Assembly: GCA_018656065.1 (NCBI GenBank)
Contig: JABHZY010000024.1
Location: 5,227 to 69,226, forward strand
DNA length: 64,000 nucleotides
Reading direction: 5' to 3'
DNA from: Candidatus Komeilibacteria bacterium
GTDB taxonomy: Bacteria > Patescibacteriota > Patescibacteriia > UBA1558 > GWA2-36-10
Shown here: in pieces, positions 33,708 to 64,000 of the stretch
Numbering within the stretch: position 1 is the stretch's first letter
How the letters are laid out: each line of letters starts with the position of its first letter
The notes under the pieces: model-generated
What the model was told of the DNA's origin: nothing
Database searches by the model: none
The model's input: the letters and a program-made list of their open reading frames with translations, nothing else
Position numbers and translations under genes: made by a program

Positions 33708-34550
33708 CTATTTCTTTATAATATCTGTATTACTAAGACCAGCTTCTATGATATCTAGGTCATAAACAGAATAATTGTTACCTGAAATATTTAAAGTTTT
33801 TAAAGTTTTTAAATTAGCTAATTCATGAGGTAAGCCAGTAAATAAATTATTTGATAAATCTAATTCCTCCAGATTAGTAAGTTGACCTATTTCAGCTGGT
33901 AGATTAGTCATTTTATTATTACTAATATCTAAAATTCTTAATTTAGTGAGATTTCTAATTTCAGCTGGCAAAGTGTCACTTATATTATTATGAGATATAT
34001 TTAAAATTTCTAAATTAGACGCTTTTAAAACACGCTCCGGAAAAGAATTTAAGCTTGCATCTTCCATATTATGTTCTTTGATATTTTCATAATCTAAAAA
34101 AACAACTGCCCTAGTATTTTCTACCGTTTCTCTAAACTCTTCACTATCTGGATGATTATAAAATTTTGGAATGTAATGAAATCCTAGAGTAGCTATTATT
34201 ATAACTACAGCTCCTACAATAGCTAATATGCTTCGGCCATAGTCTACTTTAACTACATTTCTGCCAGATTGTTTAGCATTATTAACTTGTTTTGGCGTTT
34301 TCGGTTCGGTATATTTACCTTGTTTAATATAATTTTTATCTACTGCTTGACCCATCCATTGGATTATCCTGTTTTGCATAAAAATTAAAATTACAAATAT
34401 TGGCCACATGTTTGTAATTAAGCTAAAAGCTAATATAACGTAATAGTATAGTTTTAATTTATGACTTCTAGATTGCGGAGTGTCATTCTCTGAAATTATA
34501 AAATTGTTTTTATCCATATTTTTAGTATTAAAGTGACTATAGTATAACAA
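33708..34550 (-). CDS. membrane-anchored leucine-rich repeat (LRR) protein
   Basis: Two or three TM segments, then five or more LRRs (LxxLxLxxNxL), e.g. LEILNISHNNISDTLPAEIRNLTKLRILDISNNKMTNLPAEIGQLTNLEELDLSNN. Confidence 0.85.
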   Translation of the reverse strand: MLYYSHFNTKNMDKNNFIISENDTPQSRSHKLKLYYYVILAFSLITNMWPIFVILIFMQNRIIQWMGQAVDKNYIKQGKYTEPKTPKQVNNAKQSGRNVVKVDYGRSILAIVGAVVIIIATLGFHYIPKFYNHPDSEEFRETVENTRAVVFLDYENIKEHNMEDASLNSFPERVLKASNLEILNISHNNISDTLPAEIRNLTKLRILDISNNKMTNLPAEIGQLTNLEELDLSNNLFTGLPHELANLKTLKTLNISGNNYSVYDLDIIEAGLSNTDIIKK

Positions 34551-34599
34551 AAAAATAAATCTTATGAAACCTAAAAATTTATGCTATAATTATTATATT

Positions 34600-35103
34600 A
34601 TGTTAACTAAAGTTGCAAAAAATAAATTAGGTTTCACGCTAGTAGAATTATTAGTTGTAATTGCCATTATTGGTATTTTATCTACAGCAACTGTAGTTAA
34701 TTTACGAACAGCTAAAGCGAAAGCTCGAGACGCCAAAAGATTAGCTGAAGTTATGCAAATAACTAAAGCTGTGGAACTTTTTAATAGTGAAAAGGGCTAC
34801 TATCCTAATACAAATTGTCATAATTTACCCAGTGTAGTGCTTTGCACATCAAGATTAAGTAGTGGTAATTGGATACCTGAATTAGTAACAGAATTTGCAG
34901 CTAATCTACCAGATGATCCTCTAAATGCTAATGTTGATGGGGAGGAATATTTTTATTGGTTTACTAGAGACGCTGGTACTGGAAATCCTGCTGACTATTT
35001 TTATATATTATTTAATTTAGAAGTTACTGATAGAATAGACAATTGCAATAATCATCCATATGGCACAACATACTCATGTATGGGTGGCGGTGAATTACCA
35101 TAA
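34600..35103 (+). CDS. type IV pilin / pseudopilin-like protein
   Basis: Prepilin signal KNKLG|FTLVELLVVIAIIGILS (G-1, F+1, E+5). TGcTATAAT extended -10 at 34582-90, 9 nt upstream of the ATG at 34600. Confidence 0.85.
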   Translation: MLTKVAKNKLGFTLVELLVVIAIIGILSTATVVNLRTAKAKARDAKRLAEVMQITKAVELFNSEKGYYPNTNCHNLPSVVLCTSRLSSGNWIPELVTEFAANLPDDPLNANVDGEEYFYWFTRDAGTGNPADYFYILFNLEVTDRIDNCNNHPYGTTYSCMGGGELP

Positions 35104-44008: not shown

Positions 44009-44058
44009 GTAGTTGTTAGTATAGTTCTTGTCACAAACCTCGGAAAGAGGGTGTCATT

Positions 44059-44478
44059 ATGTACTGGAAAAATGATGCTGAAGCAATCGCATTTTTACAA
44101 TCGCGCGGACAACTAATCCCTATGGATCCTAAAGACATCAGAGAAGTTGCCACATTAATTCTTGATTTAGAATTAAAGAGGGCTAGAGAAGCTGAAGAGG
44201 CAGCTGAAAAAAGAACTGCTAGAGAAAAAAGAGGTCTCCGAAATTGGGATATAATCAAAAGAGGTCGCGAAGTTGTAGAAGCTGAAGAGGCAGCTGAAGA
44301 AGCTCGCATCAGACAGGCTGCAGCCGATGAATTTAAGCGACGAAAAGAAGCTGAGGAGGCGGCTAATCGTTGTTCATCATGCGGTAAAATTAAAAAAACC
44401 TGTAACACATGCAGTACGACGGTATGTTGTGGAACAAACATAAGTGGGTACTGCTGGCATTGCTGGCATGATGATTGA
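44059..44478 (+). CDS. orphan GC-rich protein (139 aa): charged helical region plus Cys-rich C-terminus
   Basis: SD AGAGGGTG before the ATG. EAEEAAE repeated three times. Tail CSSCGKIKKTCNTCSTTVCCGTNISGYCWHCWHDD. Own terminator. Confidence 0.65.
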   Translation: MYWKNDAEAIAFLQSRGQLIPMDPKDIREVATLILDLELKRAREAEEAAEKRTAREKRGLRNWDIIKRGREVVEAEEAAEEARIRQAAADEFKRRKEAEEAANRCSSCGKIKKTCNTCSTTVCCGTNISGYCWHCWHDD

Positions 44479-47084: not shown

Positions 47085-48584
47085 TTATTTCCCTATCTTA
47101 AATATATTTATTTTTTCTAAACCTTTGTCAGCTAATTTAATTCTTTCTTTAGTGCGAGCATAAAGAGTGAATAATCTTTCACCTTTTTTAACATGATCAT
47201 CAAACTCTTTATTAAGATAAATACCTGCTAATTGATCAGCTGGCGCACCTAAAATACGAGCTATGGTATTAATACCCTTATTATCAGTAAAAATGATCCT
47301 ACCTGACTTAGGAGCATTATAATACTTCTTATGAGCCGCTAAGACTATATCATTTGGATCAATATCATATTTACCACCTTGAGCTTTAAGAATTTCTTGC
47401 ATTTTTTTCCAAGCAGCCCCTGACTCTAAAGTCTTCCAAGCTATAGCAGCTCCTTGGCCTTTTTTAGCCTTACCAGCTAATTCTAGAAGCTCTCCAGCTA
47501 AATGTATTGCTTTATTAGCTAAATCAGCTGGATAATTATCTTTTTGTTGCAATACTCTCAAAACATCACGAGCCTCTAAAGCCGGACCAACACCCATGCC
47601 AATTGGGTCTTCAGTCTGAATCATTATTACTTTTATTTTTATATTAAATTTTCTGGCAATGTATTTAAACTTTCTTTCCAATTCTTTAGCTATCTTCATG
47701 TTTGGAATTTTAGTAGTTTCACCTACTGGCATGTCTATTACTAAATGAGTTACTCCAGAGGCAACTTTTTTAGCCATAATAGAAACCAACATCTTGTCGT
47801 AAGGTTCCATAGATAATGGATAGGATACTTTCAGAATTTTATCATCCGCTGGAGCCAAATTAAGGCCACCACCCCAAACTAAACATCCACCTACTTTTTT
47901 AACTATTTTTTTAATCTCTTTAGCACTAAAAGAAACTGGCGCTAAAACTTCCATAGTATCTGATGTGCCAGCTGGAGATGTGATAGCTCTAGAAGAGTTT
48001 TTAGGTATTACTAAGCCCAAAGCAGCAATAATGGGTATCACTATCATAGTAGTCCTATTTCCAGCTAAACCGCCCACGGAATGCTTATCTACGACCATCT
48101 TATGAGGAAATTTAAGCATTTCTCCGGTCTCAGCCATAGCTTTGGTCATAAAATACAATTCTTGATCATCATAATCACGTATAAAACTAGAAGCTACAAA
48201 ATAAGTGGTTTCAGTACGCGTTAGGATTCCCTTGGCAATGTCAGAGAATATTTGATAAAAATCCTCGTAGTTTAATTTTTTACCCAATAATCTTTTTTTA
48301 ATAGCTTTAATAGATTTGGCTCGTTCAATAAATTCTATTTCCGCAATAGTATTTGGAGAAATTTTCATCTTTTCCCAAATATCTTTATAAAAACCTATCT
48401 GTCCGAGCTTAACCCTTTTTTGACTGGTGTTTGCTTCTGCAATTACAGAATGATCTGGCCAAGTAATTTTTACTTTATCACCCGCTTTAATTCCATAGCG
48501 CCTAGCTTCTTCTCTATTCAGTAATACTATATTAGATTGACCAGTTTTAATGTCTAATTTTTTTATTTTTAGATAATATGGCAT
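47085..48584 (-). CDS. AMP phosphorylase-type (archaeal DeoA-like) nucleoside phosphorylase
   Basis: 499 aa with the N-terminal extension of about 80 aa absent from thymidine phosphorylases. DKHSVGGLAGNRTT motif. Confidence 0.85.
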   Translation of the reverse strand: MPYYLKIKKLDIKTGQSNIVLLNREEARRYGIKAGDKVKITWPDHSVIAEANTSQKRVKLGQIGFYKDIWEKMKISPNTIAEIEFIERAKSIKAIKKRLLGKKLNYEDFYQIFSDIAKGILTRTETTYFVASSFIRDYDDQELYFMTKAMAETGEMLKFPHKMVVDKHSVGGLAGNRTTMIVIPIIAALGLVIPKNSSRAITSPAGTSDTMEVLAPVSFSAKEIKKIVKKVGGCLVWGGGLNLAPADDKILKVSYPLSMEPYDKMLVSIMAKKVASGVTHLVIDMPVGETTKIPNMKIAKELERKFKYIARKFNIKIKVIMIQTEDPIGMGVGPALEARDVLRVLQQKDNYPADLANKAIHLAGELLELAGKAKKGQGAAIAWKTLESGAAWKKMQEILKAQGGKYDIDPNDIVLAAHKKYYNAPKSGRIIFTDNKGINTIARILGAPADQLAGIYLNKEFDDHVKKGERLFTLYARTKERIKLADKGLEKINIFKIGK

Positions 48585-48589
48585 AAATT

Positions 48590-50356
48590 TTAAAATTTGA
48601 TAACTTCACCAGGATCTAAATCCTTAGCTACCCTATCTTCTGTTTTTCTAATTTCTTTGCTTGGTTCTTTAATTTGTTTCTTAACTTCTTTCTTAGTCTC
48701 TACTGGCTTAATTTTAGATTCTTCTCTTTTTACAGAAGGCTTTCTACCTTTTAAAGCGTCTGCTAAAGAAGTAAATTCTTCCTCTTTGCCATTGTCAGAA
48801 ATTATTTTAATACTAGAAGGAGGTGGAACTTTACCAGCCCTAGAAAGATCTAAACATTCTCGACAATAGATAGGCTTTTTAGGATCTGGGTCAAAATTTA
48901 TTGTGGTGTGTTTACCACATAAGTCACAAACTACATTTTTGGTAAAACCTGTGTCTTTTGGTTTGCGTTTTCTTGGCTTTTTTTCTCTGTTAGTAGTTTC
49001 TGTTGTTTTAGAAACAACTCTATCGGCAGTTTTAGCAACTGTGCCAGTGGCTGGTACATTCACATCTTCGTCTCCTCTGCCCTCAGCCCAGCGAATAATT
49101 CTATCTTCTATTACTTCTCTTGGTTTGGCATATCTCTCACGAGTAATATTAATTATTTTATCTTTGACACCTGCAGCCTCTTCGGTCATGGCCACTGGTG
49201 GCAATGTTTTAGCAGAAAAACCCTCTGAAGTAACACCATCAATCATTAATTTAATATAAATTTCAAATTTAGAAAGATTAACTAAATCTTCTTGAGTAAA
49301 AGTTGGAAAAAATTCTTTTTCTAAAAACTCAGCGTCAGCTGCACCAACTCTAAAATTGACTATAGTACCAACATTACCAAACACAGCAGCTGTCATTTCT
49401 TCAGGAACTTGTTCAATATATTGATGGGCAATAATAAGATTTAGTTTATATTTTCTAGCTTCAGATAATATATTAGCAAATGACTCAGTAGCAAAATTTT
49501 GAAATTCATCTACATATAAGTAAAAATCTTTTCTTTCTTCTTCTATAGTATCTACTCTACTCATAGCAGCTAATTGGATTTTAGTAATCATCATAGCTCC
49601 TAGCAAGGCTGAATTATCTTCACCAACTCTACCTTTAGAAAGATTTAACAGCAAAATTTTCTGACCATCCATAATCTCTCTCATATTGAAAGATGATCTA
49701 ACTTGGCCTAAAATATTTCTAATCAAGGCTGATGACAAGAAACGGCCAACCTTATTTTGAATAGGTGCTATGGCCTCTGCTTGAAATCTATCAGGATACT
49801 TACTATATTCATCTACCCAAAAAGCTTTAACAACAGGATCAGATATTTTTTCTACAACTTTTTTCCTAAAAGCTTTATCAGTCAACATTCTCATAATACC
49901 TAAGAGAGTTGAGCCAGGATATTCTAATAAAGCTGAAATGGCGTGATGCAGTACATATTCTAATCTTGGCCCCCAGGAATCAGCCCAAATCTTTTGAAAT
50001 ACACCGATTAATCCCGATACTACCAAATGCCTTTGACTAGCATCTACTTGTTCTAAAACATTAAAACCAATTGGAAAATCCAAGTCAGCTGGATTGAAAT
50101 ATATAACGTCATTAATACGTTCGCGTGGTACAAAATTAATGACTTTTTCTACTAAATCACCATGAGGATCTACTACACAAACACCTTTTCCATCTTGAAT
50201 ATCTTGGATAATCATATTTTCCAAAACAGTAGATTTACCCATGCCAGTTTTGCCAATAAAATACATATGGCGACGTCTGTCATCAGTTTTAATTCCAAAT
50301 TTTACATTGGAATTTCTATAATTTGTTTCAGCAAAAATTGTTATTTTATCATTCAT
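48590..50356 (-). CDS. TraD/VirD4-like (type IV secretion coupling-protein family) P-loop ATPase with C-terminal zinc ribbon and Lys-rich tail
   Basis: Walker A GKTGMGKS and Walker B LYVDEFQNF. CDLCGK...CRECL at residues 477-502. Confidence 0.8.
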   Translation of the reverse strand: MNDKITIFAETNYRNSNVKFGIKTDDRRRHMYFIGKTGMGKSTVLENMIIQDIQDGKGVCVVDPHGDLVEKVINFVPRERINDVIYFNPADLDFPIGFNVLEQVDASQRHLVVSGLIGVFQKIWADSWGPRLEYVLHHAISALLEYPGSTLLGIMRMLTDKAFRKKVVEKISDPVVKAFWVDEYSKYPDRFQAEAIAPIQNKVGRFLSSALIRNILGQVRSSFNMREIMDGQKILLLNLSKGRVGEDNSALLGAMMITKIQLAAMSRVDTIEEERKDFYLYVDEFQNFATESFANILSEARKYKLNLIIAHQYIEQVPEEMTAAVFGNVGTIVNFRVGAADAEFLEKEFFPTFTQEDLVNLSKFEIYIKLMIDGVTSEGFSAKTLPPVAMTEEAAGVKDKIINITRERYAKPREVIEDRIIRWAEGRGDEDVNVPATGTVAKTADRVVSKTTETTNREKKPRKRKPKDTGFTKNVVCDLCGKHTTINFDPDPKKPIYCRECLDLSRAGKVPPPSSIKIISDNGKEEEFTSLADALKGRKPSVKREESKIKPVETKKEVKKQIKEPSKEIRKTEDRVAKDLDPGEVIKF

Positions 50357-50359
50357 ATT

Positions 50360-51850
50360 TTAAGCAGTTGGTAAATTAGGTGGTGCTTGACCCTTATGCC
50401 TAGGAGCTTCGATAGTTGCTGTGTCTTTTTTAGCAAATTTTTCTTCAAAATGTTTATCTGATAAATCAACATTAAAATTAGGTGTAACTAATTGTCTAGT
50501 TAATTCTTCACTAACTTCACTTTTACCAACTTCTTCTAATTTATTAACTGGTAATGATGAAGGTGGTTCAGATTTCTTAGTTTCAGTACGTTGTAATAAT
50601 GGAGCTTTAACAAACTTACTTGGAAAATGCCAAATAGTAGCTAACTCTTCTGTATTTAAAATAAAATAATTATGTCCTCTGGTACCACTACGATTTTTAT
50701 AGCCAGCCATCAATCTCTTTCTACGCCAAGCTGTACGAGTTTTTATAAAGAAATAATTAATTTTGGTCTTAGTTTTTTTATCTGGCATAAAAGAATTAAG
50801 ATCCAGGGTATTAAATTGTTTGATAGAACCAAAAACAGAAGATATTACTCTGGCTGGAGCATACAATTCTTTTGGAGAAATATATATCAAACGAATTTTA
50901 CATTCAAAACCAGTTTTACTAGCCTTTTTTTCTATAGCTTCTACAGCTCCTTTTTCACCTGGAGTAAGGTGAAGCATTAAAGATGGCATATCATCCTTAG
51001 TCTTACTAGCTGGTGAGGCAGTCAAATCTTGCGGCCAGATCATAGGCTCTCCAGTAGACAAGAAAAATAAGCTCGTAATAGGATCAAATACCCTATTAAA
51101 AAAACCTTTCTTTTCAGTAAACTTTTTTCCAGCTATTTTATAAGCTTCTTTCATACTACGTTTTGGCCAACCAAAACCCGTTGGTTTAACCAAAATTTGA
51201 AACCAAACCTGTTCACCAATTTGGATTTTACTCATTGTTTCTAGCATTGAAGCTAAAGGATCTTTGAATTCACCAGACACAGCATCTTCAAACTCTGTAT
51301 AAGTTCTGATAGGATAGGCTTCATTCTCGGCCAAAATTACCTCTGCACCCCAAATGTTATGAGTGTCATTTGGATAATCATCGGGCGTATCACCTACATA
51401 GTCTTCTACTTCAGTAATCTCTGCATCTGGATACTGAGAATAAATAGAACTTTCTATCAAATCACGATATTGACTAGGAGTTCTTATCAAAAATTGTACA
51501 TAACCATCAATACTAACTATTTCAAAGGTAAAACTAAGTTGAAAATTTCCATCTCTATATATTTCCAAGAGATTTAAGGGGCTATGAGCACCTGATACTG
51601 TAGAAAAAAGTTGCTCTACAGCCTTTGGAGTCTGTTCAGTATCTTTTGGCACATCAATAGCTAAAATGACAAATTTTTGAGTTCCAAACCATTTTAAACT
51701 TTGTCTAAGATGCCAAATTTCAAATATACCTCGAGAAATTACAATGAAATAAATAAGCCAGCCTCCATTTTTGAAGAATAACCAAGCTACTGCACCAAAG
51801 CCTTGGTCCATAGCTGCGTACAATGCTGAAAAATCTAAAGTTAATTCCAT
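50360..51850 (-). CDS. membrane protein coupled to the TraD-like ATPase
   Basis: 496 aa with N-terminal TM helices. Its stop lies 4 nt from the ATPase start. Confidence 0.55.
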   Translation of the reverse strand: MELTLDFSALYAAMDQGFGAVAWLFFKNGGWLIYFIVISRGIFEIWHLRQSLKWFGTQKFVILAIDVPKDTEQTPKAVEQLFSTVSGAHSPLNLLEIYRDGNFQLSFTFEIVSIDGYVQFLIRTPSQYRDLIESSIYSQYPDAEITEVEDYVGDTPDDYPNDTHNIWGAEVILAENEAYPIRTYTEFEDAVSGEFKDPLASMLETMSKIQIGEQVWFQILVKPTGFGWPKRSMKEAYKIAGKKFTEKKGFFNRVFDPITSLFFLSTGEPMIWPQDLTASPASKTKDDMPSLMLHLTPGEKGAVEAIEKKASKTGFECKIRLIYISPKELYAPARVISSVFGSIKQFNTLDLNSFMPDKKTKTKINYFFIKTRTAWRRKRLMAGYKNRSGTRGHNYFILNTEELATIWHFPSKFVKAPLLQRTETKKSEPPSSLPVNKLEEVGKSEVSEELTRQLVTPNFNVDLSDKHFEEKFAKKDTATIEAPRHKGQAPPNLPTA

Positions 51851-51982: not shown

Positions 51983-53095
51983 TTATTCAGTCTTGTCAGT
52001 TTTTAATGAATAGCGTCCTTTTTCATCGCGGACAAATTTATCTTTATTCATTAAGGCTAATGTAATAGTAGTTTCTTTAATCATGCGTTTTTCAAAAACT
52101 GCTTCAGTGATTTCTTTCTTAGTTAAAGGTTTGTCACTGTCATTTAAAATATCAGCAATTACATCTGCAACTACACCTGGCTTATATCCCCATTCTTTTA
52201 AGGCATAAATACCACGGCCAACTAATACATACTTTTTATCTAAAATTAATTCATTATGAATGGTCGCTGGATAGGCTTTACGATGATCAAAAGCCATTTG
52301 ATTAATAATATCGGCAATATTTGTAAAATGCATAGGCTTACCTTTTTTCTGTAAGACTAGATAAATTTTATCATTCATTCTACGTGGAGTAATGCTTGCC
52401 CATTCTACTAATCCCCATTCTTCATAAGGATTTGATTTCAATTTTTTAGTAACATTAATAAAGTTTATAACTACTCTATCTGTTAAATCATTATTATTAT
52501 CATAAAATTCAGTTTCTTGAATTTTCTCAATAAGCTCATCTAAATTTAAAGTATCACCATGACCATCTATTAGAGAACGTATATTATCAATAGTGTCATT
52601 AAACAAATCTACATTGGCTTCTGGAGTCTTCCAAAAACCATTACTGTGCTTTGTTTCCTTAGCAAAACTAAATCTATGACTTAAGAGCTGATTTAATATA
52701 AATTTGATAGCAGATTTATTTTCTTCTGAACTACCAGGAATTGCTAACAATTCATCTATTAAATTTTCTTCAGACATCAAACCACCATGCTCAGCTAAAG
52801 TTGAGTTGGCAATATCTTCAATCTCTTTAAGGATAGTTTGATTGAAGCTTTTATTTATCTTTTTCAGAGAAGTGTTTTCAATTTGTCTAATTCTCTCACG
52901 AGTAACGCTATATTGTTTACCAATATCCTCAAGAGTCTTTTTCTCTGAACCAGATAAGCCGTGACGCATTTTTATAATTTCTTGCTCACGTTCTGATAAA
53001 GCAGTCAAAATATTTTCTAAAGTTTGATGGGGATCAAAATCAGACAGCTTTGACAGATGCTTTGATGTAATTACTTGATCTAAAATTCCAGACAT
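51983..53095 (-). CDS. sigma-70 region 4-like HTH protein with C-terminal HARE-HTH-like domain
   Basis: LSEREQEIIKMRHGL...TLEDIGKQYSVTRERIRQIENTSLKKI (region 4 pattern). C-terminal winged-HTH-like region ...IHNELILDKKYVLVGRGIYALKEWG. Confidence 0.65.
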   Translation of the reverse strand: MSGILDQVITSKHLSKLSDFDPHQTLENILTALSEREQEIIKMRHGLSGSEKKTLEDIGKQYSVTRERIRQIENTSLKKINKSFNQTILKEIEDIANSTLAEHGGLMSEENLIDELLAIPGSSEENKSAIKFILNQLLSHRFSFAKETKHSNGFWKTPEANVDLFNDTIDNIRSLIDGHGDTLNLDELIEKIQETEFYDNNNDLTDRVVINFINVTKKLKSNPYEEWGLVEWASITPRRMNDKIYLVLQKKGKPMHFTNIADIINQMAFDHRKAYPATIHNELILDKKYVLVGRGIYALKEWGYKPGVVADVIADILNDSDKPLTKKEITEAVFEKRMIKETTITLALMNKDKFVRDEKGRYSLKTDKTE

Positions 53096-60502: not shown

Positions 60503-60877
60503 TTAATCAACTGTTTGTGCGAAAAGTTCACTAAGTACAAATCTAGATACAGCATAGGCAGTTAAAATAATAACTAAACCTACAACGCCTGCGCCAATTA
60601 ACTTTTTGGCTTCATCTACTTTTTCAGAACTTCCATAAGAAGTCATCCATTTGAAACCACCAAATAAGATAATTAAAGTAGTTAATATTCCTAGAAAACC
60701 TAAGATAATGTTAATTACCCCTCCAATGGTTTCTCTTAAAGGTTTTGACCCTAAGGCAATATTAGATGTAGAAAAATCGTCATACCCCCAAGCATTAACG
60801 TCAGCAGGCTGAGCGTTAGCTACATTAGCTGCTAAACTAGGAGCTAATACCAAAGCAAATGTTAATATTTTCTTCAT
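60503..60877 (-). CDS. small secreted two-TM protein, TrbC/VirB2-like (T4SS pilin-like) topology
   Basis: Signal peptide ending ANAQP, then two hydrophobic helices in a 124-aa protein. Confidence 0.5.
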   Translation of the reverse strand: MKKILTFALVLAPSLAANVANAQPADVNAWGYDDFSTSNIALGSKPLRETIGGVINIILGFLGILTTLIILFGGFKWMTSYGSSEKVDEAKKLIGAGVVGLVIILTAYAVSRFVLSELFAQTVD

Positions 60878-61088: not shown

Positions 61089-61162
61089 TGGCTCGGGGAC
61101 AGGGAGTCGAACCCCGATTGACGGGACCAGAACCCGTTGTCCTACCATTAGACGATCCCCGA
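61089..61162 (-). tRNA. tRNA-Gln (anticodon CUG), CCA encoded
   Basis: Manual cloverleaf. Acceptor TCGGGGA/TCCCCGA, D arm GTC/GAC, anticodon stem ACGGG/CCCGT with loop TTCTGGT, T arm CGGGG-TTCGACT-CCCTG, then G-CCA. Confidence 0.9.
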
Positions 61163-62669: not shown

Positions 62670-63254
62670 CTAAAGATTGAGATCGAGTTCGTCAGTAGAA
62701 GCCACTTTATTATTAGTTTTAATTATATTCTCTACAGCTGCCCAAGCGCTATCAGAATCCTTGGAGACTAATATAACCGCCTCATCACCCTCCTCTCCTT
62801 TAAAATATGTAACAGAAGCTAAGAGCACTTTATATATTTTGTCTCCAGCTAAAATCACAAATTCATTAGTGGCCTTATCTTTAATAAGATGGCCAACTAA
62901 CCTTGTTCTTTCTACTGGCGATATTTGTTTAAAAATAAATGAACCGTCCTGACTTATAGTTAATTTTAATATATCTCCTTCTACAAGTTTTGACTTAGAA
63001 GCATAATTAGCTGGCACACTATATTGCTTACCATCTGGCCCTATCATTATCTGACCATTAAACACTCCTTCAACTATCAAACCTTCATCGCCATCAATTT
63101 CTTTACCAACCTGAGCAGCTCGTAGACTATAGTCTACTGCTTGGGAAGAAGATTTTCCAGTTATTTCACCTAAAACTTGTTTAGTTTTAGTCAATTCTAA
63201 TTCTAAATTATATACTAAAGCTTCTAAATCTTTTATTTTTTTGGTTTTAGACAT
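62670..63254 (-). CDS. hypothetical protein (194 aa)
   Basis: ORF tightly coupled to dnaX. No recognised family. Confidence 0.5.
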   Translation of the reverse strand: MSKTKKIKDLEALVYNLELELTKTKQVLGEITGKSSSQAVDYSLRAAQVGKEIDGDEGLIVEGVFNGQIMIGPDGKQYSVPANYASKSKLVEGDILKLTISQDGSFIFKQISPVERTRLVGHLIKDKATNEFVILAGDKIYKVLLASVTYFKGEEGDEAVILVSKDSDSAWAAVENIIKTNNKVASTDELDLNL

Positions 63255-63340: not shown

Positions 63341-64000
63341 TTATGGACGAGCCATATTAGCTTTAATTTCATTTTCTATAACTGTTTTATCACGACCATA
63401 TTTAAGGCGTGATAATTCTTTAATAGCCTTAGCTAATTCATAGTTACCTTTTTCTGGTAATATGGGATTAAAATTAAAGGCCGGCGGATTTTGATTATCT
63501 ATTAATAATTTTATATAACAGGTAAATTTTGGCATATTTACCAAATCATATTCCGTTACTACTGGTGCCATTTGTTTAGCTATAACTTCTGCATCATCAA
63601 CACCAATTCTATATGATATCAATGTACCAACATTACCAAAAATTGCATCTTTAACGCTGGTATCTCCATCTTTAACTAACTGAGCTAAAAATTGATGTGC
63701 CAAAACTAAGTTAAGTTTATATTTTCTAGCTTCTGATAATATTATCGAAATACTATCCGTTATATAATTTTGGAACTCGTCAATATATAAATAAAAATCA
63801 TCTCTTTCTTCTTCTGGTGTATCTACTCTACTAAGAGCAGCAAATAATATTTTACCAATCATTATCATACCCAATAAACTACTATTCATTTCTCCAATCT
63901 TACCTTTAGATAAATTAATTATTATTATTTTATTTTCATCCATAGCCTTTCTAAAATTAAAAGCGCTCTTAGTTTGAGAAATAATAGGACGAATAGTATC
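63341..64000 (-). CDS. second TraD/VirD4-like ATPase (paralog of 48590..50356); N-terminal part lies outside the window
   Basis: The frame stays open upstream of the track ATG to the window edge (...DTIRPIISQTKSAFNFRKAMDENKIIIINLSKG). It aligns with LIRNILGQVRSSFNMREIMDGQKILLLNLSKG of the first copy. Walker B LYIDEFQNY. Confidence 0.8.
   Translation of the reverse strand, partial: DTIRPIISQTKSAFNFRKAMDENKIIIINLSKGKIGEMNSSLLGMIMIGKILFAALSRVDTPEEERDDFYLYIDEFQNYITDSISIILSEARKYKLNLVLAHQFLAQLVKDGDTSVKDAIFGNVGTLISYRIGVDDAEVIAKQMAPVVTEYDLVNMPKFTCYIKLLIDNQNPPAFNFNPILPEKGNYELAKAIKELSRLKYGRDKTVIENEIKANMARP

Follow-up and report, generated by a model that had tools for sequence, protein, structure and literature searches.

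The stretch of DNA analyzed here (hereafter, the window) is 64,000 nucleotides long and comes from a Candidatus Komeilibacteria bacterium. Two adjacent genes at positions 48590-51850 of the window encode a protein of 496 aa that carries the domain DUF8128 (50360..51850) and, downstream of it, a soluble P-loop ATPase of 588 aa, which we call ATPase1 (48590..50356). Both lie on the minus strand, as do all window features described below unless stated otherwise. A second copy of the ATPase runs off the right edge of the window (63341..64000). An earlier sequence-only reading of the window had taken the two genes for a module of an ATPase and a membrane protein, and had suggested that they may form a minimal DNA or protein translocation system rather than a classical conjugation apparatus. 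Herein, we describe the pair as the gene-fission variant of a single protein, of which this lineage retains two ancient paralogs in its core genome, one fused and one split. With about even confidence, we take the two paralogs to be coupling-protein-type motors of a larger type IV secretion system (T4SS) that is encoded elsewhere.

ATPase1 was assigned to the type IV coupling protein (T4CP) type, represented by TrwB and VirD4, using Pfam and NCBIfam models, profile alignment and structural comparison. It scored above the Pfam cut-offs for TrwB_AAD_bind (42.1 bits, cut-off 20.5), T4SS-DNA_transf (28.8 bits, cut-off 20.1) and TraG-D_C (24.5 bits, cut-off 22), and also for DUF87. When a profile of 44 ATPase1 homologs was aligned with hhalign to TrwB, the match had a probability of 94% (E = 9e-8) and covered 261 columns, from Walker A through Walker B and including the helical insertion between them. 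The same profile reached a probability of only 2.7% with VirB4/TrwK and 7% with PrgJ, and ATPase1 had no match to the Pfam families AAA_10 and CagE_TrbE_VirB. An AlphaFold2 (AF2) model of ATPase1 (pLDDT 69) was compared with known structures using Foldseek; TrwB chains were found at E-values of about 1e-9 and had the top TM-scores (0.52-0.56). The lowest E-value belonged to Thermococcus HerA (2.9e-10), for which the TM-scores were 0.33-0.42. Further matches included DotL, Cag-beta, HerA-type defence ATPases (Sir2-HerA, TdpAB and DndH) and the C-terminal domain (CTD) of VirB4; these matches, like that to HerA, are expected within the ATPase superfamily. The NCBIfam HerA model gave 15.5 bits against a cut-off of 970, and ATPase1 had neither a FtsK_SpoIIIE Pfam match nor a gamma domain. 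A tblastn search with the E. coli FtsK motor against the window and 1.43 Mb of related loci, a sample that is not genome-wide, returned nothing at E <1e-3. We conclude that ATPase1 is of the coupling-protein type, as the sequence-only reading had held, and is not a HerA/FtsK housekeeping enzyme.

Judged by its motifs, the motor is catalytically intact. The Walker A motif (GKTGMGKS, residues 35-42; 50231..50254) has G35-K41 invariant in the 44 homologs, and the Walker B region (YVDEF, residues 281-285; 49502..49516), in which D283 and E284 are invariant, aligns with the Walker B region of TrwB. Between them, approximately at residues 106-230 (49667..50041), lies an all-alpha insertion that is seen both as helices in the AF2 model and in the hhalign alignment with TrwB; its pLDDT is just 50-77, and it occupies the position of the T4CP all-alpha domain. 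No transmembrane (TM) segment was predicted in ATPase1, and there is no hydrophobic stretch ahead of the P-loop. At its C-terminal end, ATPase1 carries a CxxC-x17-CxxC treble-clef zinc ribbon (residues 474-503; 48848..48937), preceded by a basic segment and followed by a disordered Lys/Glu-rich tail of 85 aa (48593..48847), which contains 17 K and 11 E and has a pLDDT <50. The ribbon was matched by PF23477 (zf_Tbcl_2, 40.6 bits) and by TIGR04272 (39.9 bits), its cysteines C477, C480, C498 and C501 are invariant, and the motif occurs in 117 of 120 ATPase1 homologs. Both the ribbon and the tail had already been recognized from the sequence alone.

The 496-aa partner was assigned to DUF8128 (PF26449) via the precomputed PF26449 annotation of its homologs, which was present on all 120 homologs listed (one of them 91% identical to the partner), and via the fused protein of the same genome that is described below; the AF2 model, Foldseek and the adjacency to ATPase1 were considered as well. 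DUF8128 is a large family: the 90%-identity cluster set holds more than 3,654 proteins, there are about 3,220 clusters at 50% identity (E <=1e-3), and the domain is present in at least 593 species-representative genomes. The source names given for the matches were all those of Patescibacteria groups. In the AF2 model of the subunit (pLDDT 76, pTM 0.68), a long N-terminal helix (residues 18-57; 51680..51799), the putative membrane anchor, is followed by a well-predicted two-lobed alpha/beta region (residues 60-410) and a disordered tail. The hydrophobicity of the helix is moderate, as residues 18-36 reach a Kyte-Doolittle value of only 1.26 over 19 residues, and in 44 of 120 DUF8128 homologs the N-terminal helix falls below the threshold of 1.6; the N-terminus of the fused paralog is strongly hydrophobic (2.23). 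Close to the C-terminus lies a conserved PPNLP motif (50369..50383). P490, L493 and P494 of this motif are invariant and N492 is nearly so in an alignment of 14 sequences, all four positions are at least 90% conserved among 62 DUF8128 sequences, and a loose form of the motif was found in 119 of 120 homologs. Thus, the description of the partner as a membrane protein held for one N-terminal helix, and did not hold for the remainder, for which a soluble alpha/beta domain and a disordered tail were predicted. According to the model, the DUF8128 subunit is bitopic, largely cytoplasmic and not channel-forming.

The fold of the DUF8128 domain offers a lead to VirB4. When the model was compared with the Protein Data Bank (PDB) using Foldseek, the top 14 matches were full-length TrwK/VirB4 chains of R388 (E-values 2e-4 to 2e-2, probability 0.63-1.0, TM-scores about 0.31), and the next match had an E-value of 0.065. 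The CTD-only VirB4 structure 4ag5, TrwB and HerA were not found by the DUF8128 model, though the ATPase1 model found all three, so the match is most simply one to the N-terminal domain of VirB4. The Foldseek output came without a residue alignment to TrwK, and the assignment to the N-terminal domain was made by exclusion of the CTD-only structure. At the sequence level, hhalign comparisons of DUF8128 profiles (built from 62 and then 169 sequences) with TrwK, PrgJ, TrsD, TrsE and a small VirB4 alignment all gave probabilities of <1%, and a search of the profile against PDB sequences returned only chance matches (ribosomal protein S6, E about 0.3).

The origin of the pair became apparent from the second paralog. 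Its C-terminal 219 codons lie within the window (63341..64000), in a frame that is open to the edge, and a comparison of their product with ATPase1 gave 50% identity over 214 aa (E = 3e-68); as DNA, the two genes are 67% identical over 473 nt (E = 4e-34). The homology between the two copies, claimed in the sequence-only reading, is therefore confirmed, and identities of this size indicate an old duplication. To follow the gene past position 64000, we used a match of its neighbor, orf194, which located the same DNA in a 448-kb contig of the European Nucleotide Archive (ENA; L081). There, the full second paralog (L081, 7461-9914) is a single protein of 817 aa, consisting of a TM helix, DUF8128 and a T4CP ATPase, with matches to PF26449 and to the T4CP Pfam families. 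The separate paralogous membrane partner for which the sequence-only reading had proposed to look beyond the edge does not exist; what lies there is this DUF8128-ATPase fusion. The DUF8128 subunit aligns to residues 41-386 of the fused protein (E = 8e-20), and residues 7-420 of ATPase1 align to its residues 391-810 at 44% identity. Fused genes were also found in three other genomes (L054, L071 and L089; 813-852 aa). Among the best 120 database matches to the fused protein, 116 were full-length and all of these were fused, while the other four were fragments; none of the 116 fused paralogs carries the zinc ribbon.

A comparison of the two forms locates the break. Fused proteins have a PSNMP or PSNLP junction motif about 35 aa ahead of Walker A. 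In the split pair, PPNLPTA is the last stretch encoded by the DUF8128 gene; a TAA stop follows, then AAT and the ATG of ATPase1, which leaves a gap of 3 nt. The motif at the end of the split subunit thus falls where fused proteins have their PSNMP junction, which places the break exactly at the domain border. The sequence-only reading had called the two genes translationally coupled; given the gap of 3 nt, such coupling is plausible. In the fused form, no TM segment lies between DUF8128 and the ATPase, and the DUF8128 domain must therefore be cytoplasmic. The fusion also provides a Rosetta-stone argument that the DUF8128 and ATPase products would work as one unit. In our reading, the split paralog arose by fission at the domain border, and its soluble ATPase gained the zinc ribbon and the charged tail.

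Between the fused paralog and dnaX lies orf194 (62670..63254), which is itself conserved. In each of the four independent genomes seen, the gene right after the fused one is orf194 or its homolog, with 66-71% identity in the three others, and dnaX follows orf194 in the three genomes whose sequence reaches that far. No significant Pfam, NCBIfam, PHROG or PDB match was found for orf194, which may be a partner of the fused ATPase. On the other side, directly upstream of the fused gene (L081:6713-7457), are open reading frames (ORFs) of 77 and 163 aa with no Pfam match above threshold.

Next, we examined the linkage of the split pair in 80 species-level loci around DUF8128, of which 73 had enough downstream sequence. 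An ATPase1 homolog lay downstream of DUF8128 on the same strand in 51 of these 73 loci. The sequence-only reading had named an ATPase of a non-secretion family, with no conserved link to its neighbor, as the finding that would speak against it; we found a T4CP-class ATPase adjacent to DUF8128 in the majority of the loci. The recurrent gene order was SecD, SecF, a gene for a protein with sigma-70 region 4 and HARE-HTH, DUF8128 and ATPase, and in 39 of 67 loci the sigma-like gene immediately preceded DUF8128. The synteny of the sigma-like gene with the pair is maintained across Patescibacteria classes. At one locus (L010, 10001-12782), a glycosyltransferase gene lies downstream of DUF8128, with no ATPase within 10 kb.

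Remote homologs of the fused form were found in the T4SS clusters of monoderm bacteria. One PHROG family, phrog_5156, spans both proteins in the fused order. A tblastn search with the fused protein returned weak full-length matches (identity about 20-29%) in Bacillus phage G and in plasmids of Streptomyces, Bacillus and Clostridium, and archaeal plasmids were also among the matched records. When the DUF8128 part alone was searched against plasmids, no match was obtained by tblastn; BLAST is not sensitive enough for so divergent a domain, which calls for profiles. A DUF8128 profile enlarged to 169 sequences was applied to four remote proteins. The probability of DUF8128 was 98.8% for Bacillus phage G gp156 (E = 5e-17), 97% for an 814-aa protein of plasmid p1 of Streptomyces sp. 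BHT-5-2 (E = 9e-11), 96% for an 800-aa protein of C. botulinum pCLJ (E = 3e-9), and 89%, as a partial match, for a 942-aa protein of B. subtilis pPMO031_2 (E = 2e-6). The probability of the ATPase was 99-100% for all four, while TrwB, PcfC and TrsK gave no DUF8128 signal.

The genes around these remote homologs are those of T4SSs. On the Streptomyces plasmid, the order is PrgI (VirB3-like), a VirB4-like ATPase and the 814-aa TM-DUF8128-T4CP protein, with a cell-wall hydrolase (SLT/NlpC_P60) two genes downstream. On the B. subtilis plasmid, the 942-aa protein (2TM-DUF8128-T4CP) is followed by Replic_Relax, TcpC, PrgI and VirB4. In the 497-kb phage G, the DUF8128-T4CP fusion gp156 adjoins the VirB4-like gp155 (L093:4249-8391). 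Since the remote fused homologs sit in T4SS clusters, the fused protein is best read as a subclass of monoderm T4SS coupling proteins, and the Patescibacteria genes are best read, as far as the sequences indicate, as chromosomal descendants of this subclass. Such a descent fits the published conclusion that the T4SS of Patescibacteria derived from monoderm conjugation machinery. A phage origin of the genes was considered and rejected, as DUF8128 is missing from the viral contigs of IMG/VR; yet one PHROG family and Bacillus phage G do have the fused architecture.

Genes of this kind have been counted before, and the window genes very likely belong to the same family. According to passages and tables of Quinonero-Coronel et al. 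2025 (PMC12102498), 2,918 of 3,035 Patescibacteria genomes have VirD4-type T4CP homologs, 5,713 in total, VirB4 is present in 2,417 genomes, and VirB2-like pilins are widespread. These passages speak of one t4cp and raise its possible exaptation, since the Southlakia homolog is non-essential. In the corresponding parts of Wang et al. (PMC10633639), the Southlakia T4SS is essential and no coupling protein was recognizable in its cluster. Tables S1/S2 of the same paper contain two proteins that, in our view, very likely belong to the family as well. SEML1_0293 (921 aa, TrwB_AAD_bind at residues 402-719) is non-essential by transposon sequencing (Tn-seq) and lies directly downstream of the essential sigma-like gene SEML1_0294, annotated as RpoS; this is the order of the sigma gene and the split pair in the window. 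SEML1_0142 (1,019 aa, P-loop domain at residues 381-800) is essential at all three time points and is flagged as a core and Patescibacteria-enriched family. The onset of the ATPase near residue 380-400 in both Southlakia proteins is consistent with a putative N-domain of the size of DUF8128. If the synteny reflects orthology, the split in the window would be a derived condition, with the corresponding gene of Saccharibacteria being fused. SEML1_0142 is preceded in the published tables by small hypothetical genes, one of them essential, just as the fused gene is preceded by small ORFs. In the passages found by term in PMC12102498, PMC10633639 and a 2025 T4SS review, there is no mention of an N-terminal domain, of split or fused forms or of a zinc ribbon; none of the papers in the literature searched uses the name DUF8128.

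The window as a whole has a G+C content of about 32% and a content of housekeeping genes, including those for aminoacyl-tRNA synthetases, SecA, SecDF, Ddl, UppS, DnaX, MnmA and FtsQ; a XerC/D-like recombinase is encoded as well. ATPase1 is 100% identical to a protein of a Candidatus Komeilibacteria metagenome-assembled genome. In Table S1 of PMC12102498, Komeilibacteria is placed in the Patescibacteria class ABY1. Upstream of the pair are SecDF and the sigma-like gene (51983..53095), whose 370-aa product carries sigma-70 region 4 in its N-terminal part and a HARE-HTH domain (RNA polymerase delta-like) by Pfam. Downstream, an AMP/thymidine-phosphorylase-like gene of 499 aa (47085-48584) begins 5 nt past ATPase1. 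At the related locus L089, NUDIX and NTPase genes come after the same phosphorylase gene; in close relatives, the operon therefore includes nucleotide-salvage genes. A scan for promoters and terminators gave the same counts as in shuffled sequence.

A VirB2-like protein of 124 aa is encoded 60503..60877. Its pilin-like nature, noticed in the sequence-only reading, was borne out by PF18895 (T4SS_pilin, 32.5 bits, cut-off 26.6) and NF045849 (36.6 bits), whereas TrbC, with 21.5 bits, remained under its cut-off of 27.9. The protein has a signal-peptide-like hydrophobic segment at residues 4-22 and two further segments at residues 47-65 and 90-108. Its neighbors are UppS on one side and tRNA-Gln/dnaX on the other, and no T4SS gene adjoins it; in the literature, the pilin gene is near virB4 in 1,135 of 1,948 assemblies. 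We rejected the pilin as a conserved member of the module, as it is missing at the equivalent position in L089 and a tRNA gene lies between the pilin gene and dnaX here; the pilin is probably part of the same T4SS as the motors. This tRNA-Gln (anticodon CTG, 61089-61162) is the sole RNA gene found in the window.

Three other features of the window were noted. At 44031-44478, ORFs of 136 and 139 aa lie on opposite strands with near-total overlap, and the plus-strand ORF has a Cys-rich C-terminal tail (CSSCGKIKKTCNTCSTTVCCG...CWHCW). A leucine-rich-repeat protein (33708-34550, minus strand) adjoins a type IV pilin-like N_methyl protein (34564-35103, plus strand). The block at 32-34 kb has a G+C content of 0.379, the maximum of the window.

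The fused and split proteins can be set against the known ATPases of T4SSs and their relatives. Like TrwB of R388, VirD4, TraD and TraG, they have a P-loop motor of the FtsK/HerA superfamily with an all-alpha insertion between Walker A and B; unlike these, which have two N-terminal TM helices on the same chain and no DUF8128, the split copy of the window has its anchor and DUF8128 on a separate polypeptide, and in its paralog they are fused to the motor. ATPase1 ends in a zinc ribbon, whereas classical T4CPs end in an acidic tail that binds the relaxosome, and no relaxase or T4SS gene lies near the window copies. The monoderm TM-DUF8128-T4CP proteins have the same domain order as the fused paralog, but they are encoded on plasmids and phage, while the Patescibacteria copies are chromosomal, duplicated, detached from T4SS genes and, in one case, split. 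VirB4 (TrwK) shares the two-domain layout of about 800 aa, with an N-terminal membrane-associated domain and a C-terminal ATPase. A precedent for a separate N-domain gene is found in pGO1: the gene of the DUF87 ATPase TrsE is immediately preceded by that of TrsD, which has been described as a remote homolog of the VirB4 N-terminal part. DUF8128 has no sequence-level similarity to TrwK, PrgJ, TrsD or TrsE (<1%), and its ATPase is T4CP-like, not VirB4-like. HerA and FtsK/SpoIIIE/TcpA belong to the same ATPase superfamily, with high-ranking Foldseek E-values, but ATPase1 does not share the HAS-barrel/NurA pairing of HerA and has no nuclease partner among its neighbors in the window.

Taken together, we read the two proteins as T4CP-type motors of Patescibacteria, old paralogs that belong to a larger T4SS encoded elsewhere, and consider this reading about as probable as not. 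We infer hexamer formation, docking, substrate and transport direction as follows. The ATPase would form a hexameric ring, which the DUF8128 subunits would tether to the cytoplasmic face of the membrane, possibly through contacts made by the conserved PPxNLP peptide. The ring would then spend ATP to feed a substrate into a T4SS of the VirB4/VirB3/VirB6/VirB2 type. For the split copy, the substrate would most likely be a nucleic acid or a nucleic-acid-bound protein, recognized by the zinc ribbon and the basic or charged tail.

Several observations weigh against this proposal. No T4SS channel or VirB4 gene is present in the 64-kb window or the next 10 kb, and relaxase and mating-pair-formation genes are likewise not encoded with ATPase1 there. 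No ATPase lies within 10 kb of the DUF8128 gene in 22 of the 73 loci (about 30%). In the tables and passages of PMC12102498, only 148 of the 5,713 T4CP genes are near virB4, relaxases are few and most Patescibacteria are without one. The tables of PMC10633639 list SEML1_0293 as non-essential though the Southlakia T4SS is essential. Finally, the likeness of DUF8128 to the N-terminal domain of VirB4 is a fold-level lead, seen in a predicted model, and the relationship is not established.

Of the other explanations, the main one is that the motor was exapted as a translocase independent of the T4SS for a housekeeping or nutritional task, serving DNA or RNA uptake or handling at the membrane for nucleotide salvage, or an FtsK-like role at the chromosome; we regard it as rather unlikely, yet deserving of serious attention. 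Apart from the distance of T4CP genes from virB4, T4CPs are commoner than VirB4 (96% versus 80% of genomes), and exaptation has been raised in PMC12102498. The split pair sits in a core housekeeping operon with the phosphorylase gene 5 nt downstream and, in L089, NUDIX and NTPase genes; the fused copy is near dnaX, the split ATPase carries a zinc ribbon and a basic segment, and the Southlakia gene with the matching synteny is non-essential, unlike the T4SS of that organism. A 2026 preprint, moreover, proposes that a cultivated representative of Patescibacteria feeds on host RNA. However, no channel partner was found for such a translocase, one TM helix per subunit is unlikely to make a pore, and the full-length remote homologs lie within T4SS clusters. 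A prevalence above that of VirB4 is expected from two copies per genome in incomplete metagenome-assembled genomes (MAGs). The salvage neighbors occur only in close relatives, where the synteny has possibly just been retained. As for a chromosome role, neither Pfam nor BLAST gave an FtsK-type signal, and TM7x has a separately annotated ftsK. Extending the T4SS-coupled reading instead, DUF8128 could be a true homolog of the VirB4 N-terminal domain, in which case the subclass would keep the two-domain architecture of the VirB4/VirD4 ancestor, the split paralog would have been retooled as a relaxase-independent nucleic-acid motor that could import or export DNA or RNA via the essential T4SS for nucleotide salvage, and the fused paralog would be the essential general coupling ATPase. 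We consider this extension distinctly unlikely.

The fold-level likeness also raises the question of whether the pair is a VirB4-like pilus-biogenesis ATPase, in which DUF8128 and the ATPase would mimic a two-domain VirB4 and energize the assembly of the nearby VirB2-like pilin. DUF8128 does resemble solely VirB4/TrwK chains in fold, the fused protein, at 817 aa, is as large as a VirB4, there is a T4SS_pilin gene at a distance of 2.5 kb and TrsD/TrsE of pGO1 are a precedent for the split, but the ATPase profile favored TrwB so strongly over TrwK and PrgJ, with neither VirB4-type Pfam family matched, that we judge this explanation improbable. Moreover, the adjacency of the pilin is not conserved, the Komeilibacteria genomes considered here from PMC12102498 have a genuine VirB4, and the Streptomyces and Bacillus homologs coexist with a separate VirB4. 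A self-contained minimal translocation system of ATPase, membrane protein and pilin, as first suggested, appears very improbable to us. The pair is tightly linked and conserved, and Pfam scans of the larger ORFs of the window found no VirB4, VirB6, VirB8-10 or relaxase, as the sequence-only reading had stated. That absence is confined to the window: in the rows of Table S1 of PMC12102498 considered here, all Komeilibacteria genomes carry VirB4, and the remote homologs occur in T4SS clusters. The lineage thus has genes of a VirB4-based T4SS elsewhere, and the link to the window pilin is not conserved. The partner consists of one weak N-terminal helix and a cytoplasmic domain rather than a polytopic channel, and the fusion puts the whole of DUF8128 on the ATPase side of the membrane; with a bitopic and mostly cytoplasmic partner, the pair cannot serve on its own as a minimal translocation system. 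The other half of that suggestion, that this is not a classical conjugation apparatus, agrees with the core housekeeping context, the lack of a relaxase and the absence of DUF8128 from IMG/VR viral contigs. Lastly, a HerA-type helicase for DNA repair or anti-phage defence, with DUF8128 as its effector or adaptor, seems hardly credible. HerA of Thermococcus had the lowest Foldseek E-value, HerA defence complexes were among the matches and DUF87 was matched in Pfam; but the TM-scores were lower for HerA than for TrwB, the T4CP models of Pfam and NCBIfam scored higher, and there was no NurA, Sir2 or other nuclease partner. Unlike the genes of defence islands, the genes are core, near-universal, vertically kept and present twice per genome, and their remote homologs sit in T4SS clusters.

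That T4CP homologs exist in Patescibacteria, at about two per genome and away from virB4, is already published in the passages of PMC12102498. To judge from the literature searched, four aspects appear not to have been described: how anchor, DUF8128 and motor are arranged, the occurrence of this arrangement in monoderm T4SS clusters, the coexistence of a fused and a split paralog of ancient origin, and the likeness of the DUF8128 fold to the N-terminal domain of VirB4. The analysis provides a first functional context for DUF8128. It also shows that one T4CP-like paralog of Southlakia is essential in the published Tn-seq tables, as opposed to the non-essential t4cp of which PMC12102498 speaks. 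If the likeness to the VirB4 N-terminal domain is true, it would bear on the divergence of VirB4 and VirD4 and would link the two signature ATPases of T4SSs. Patescibacteria depend on an essential T4SS whose function is unexplained, and the two paralogs are candidates for how substrates reach it.

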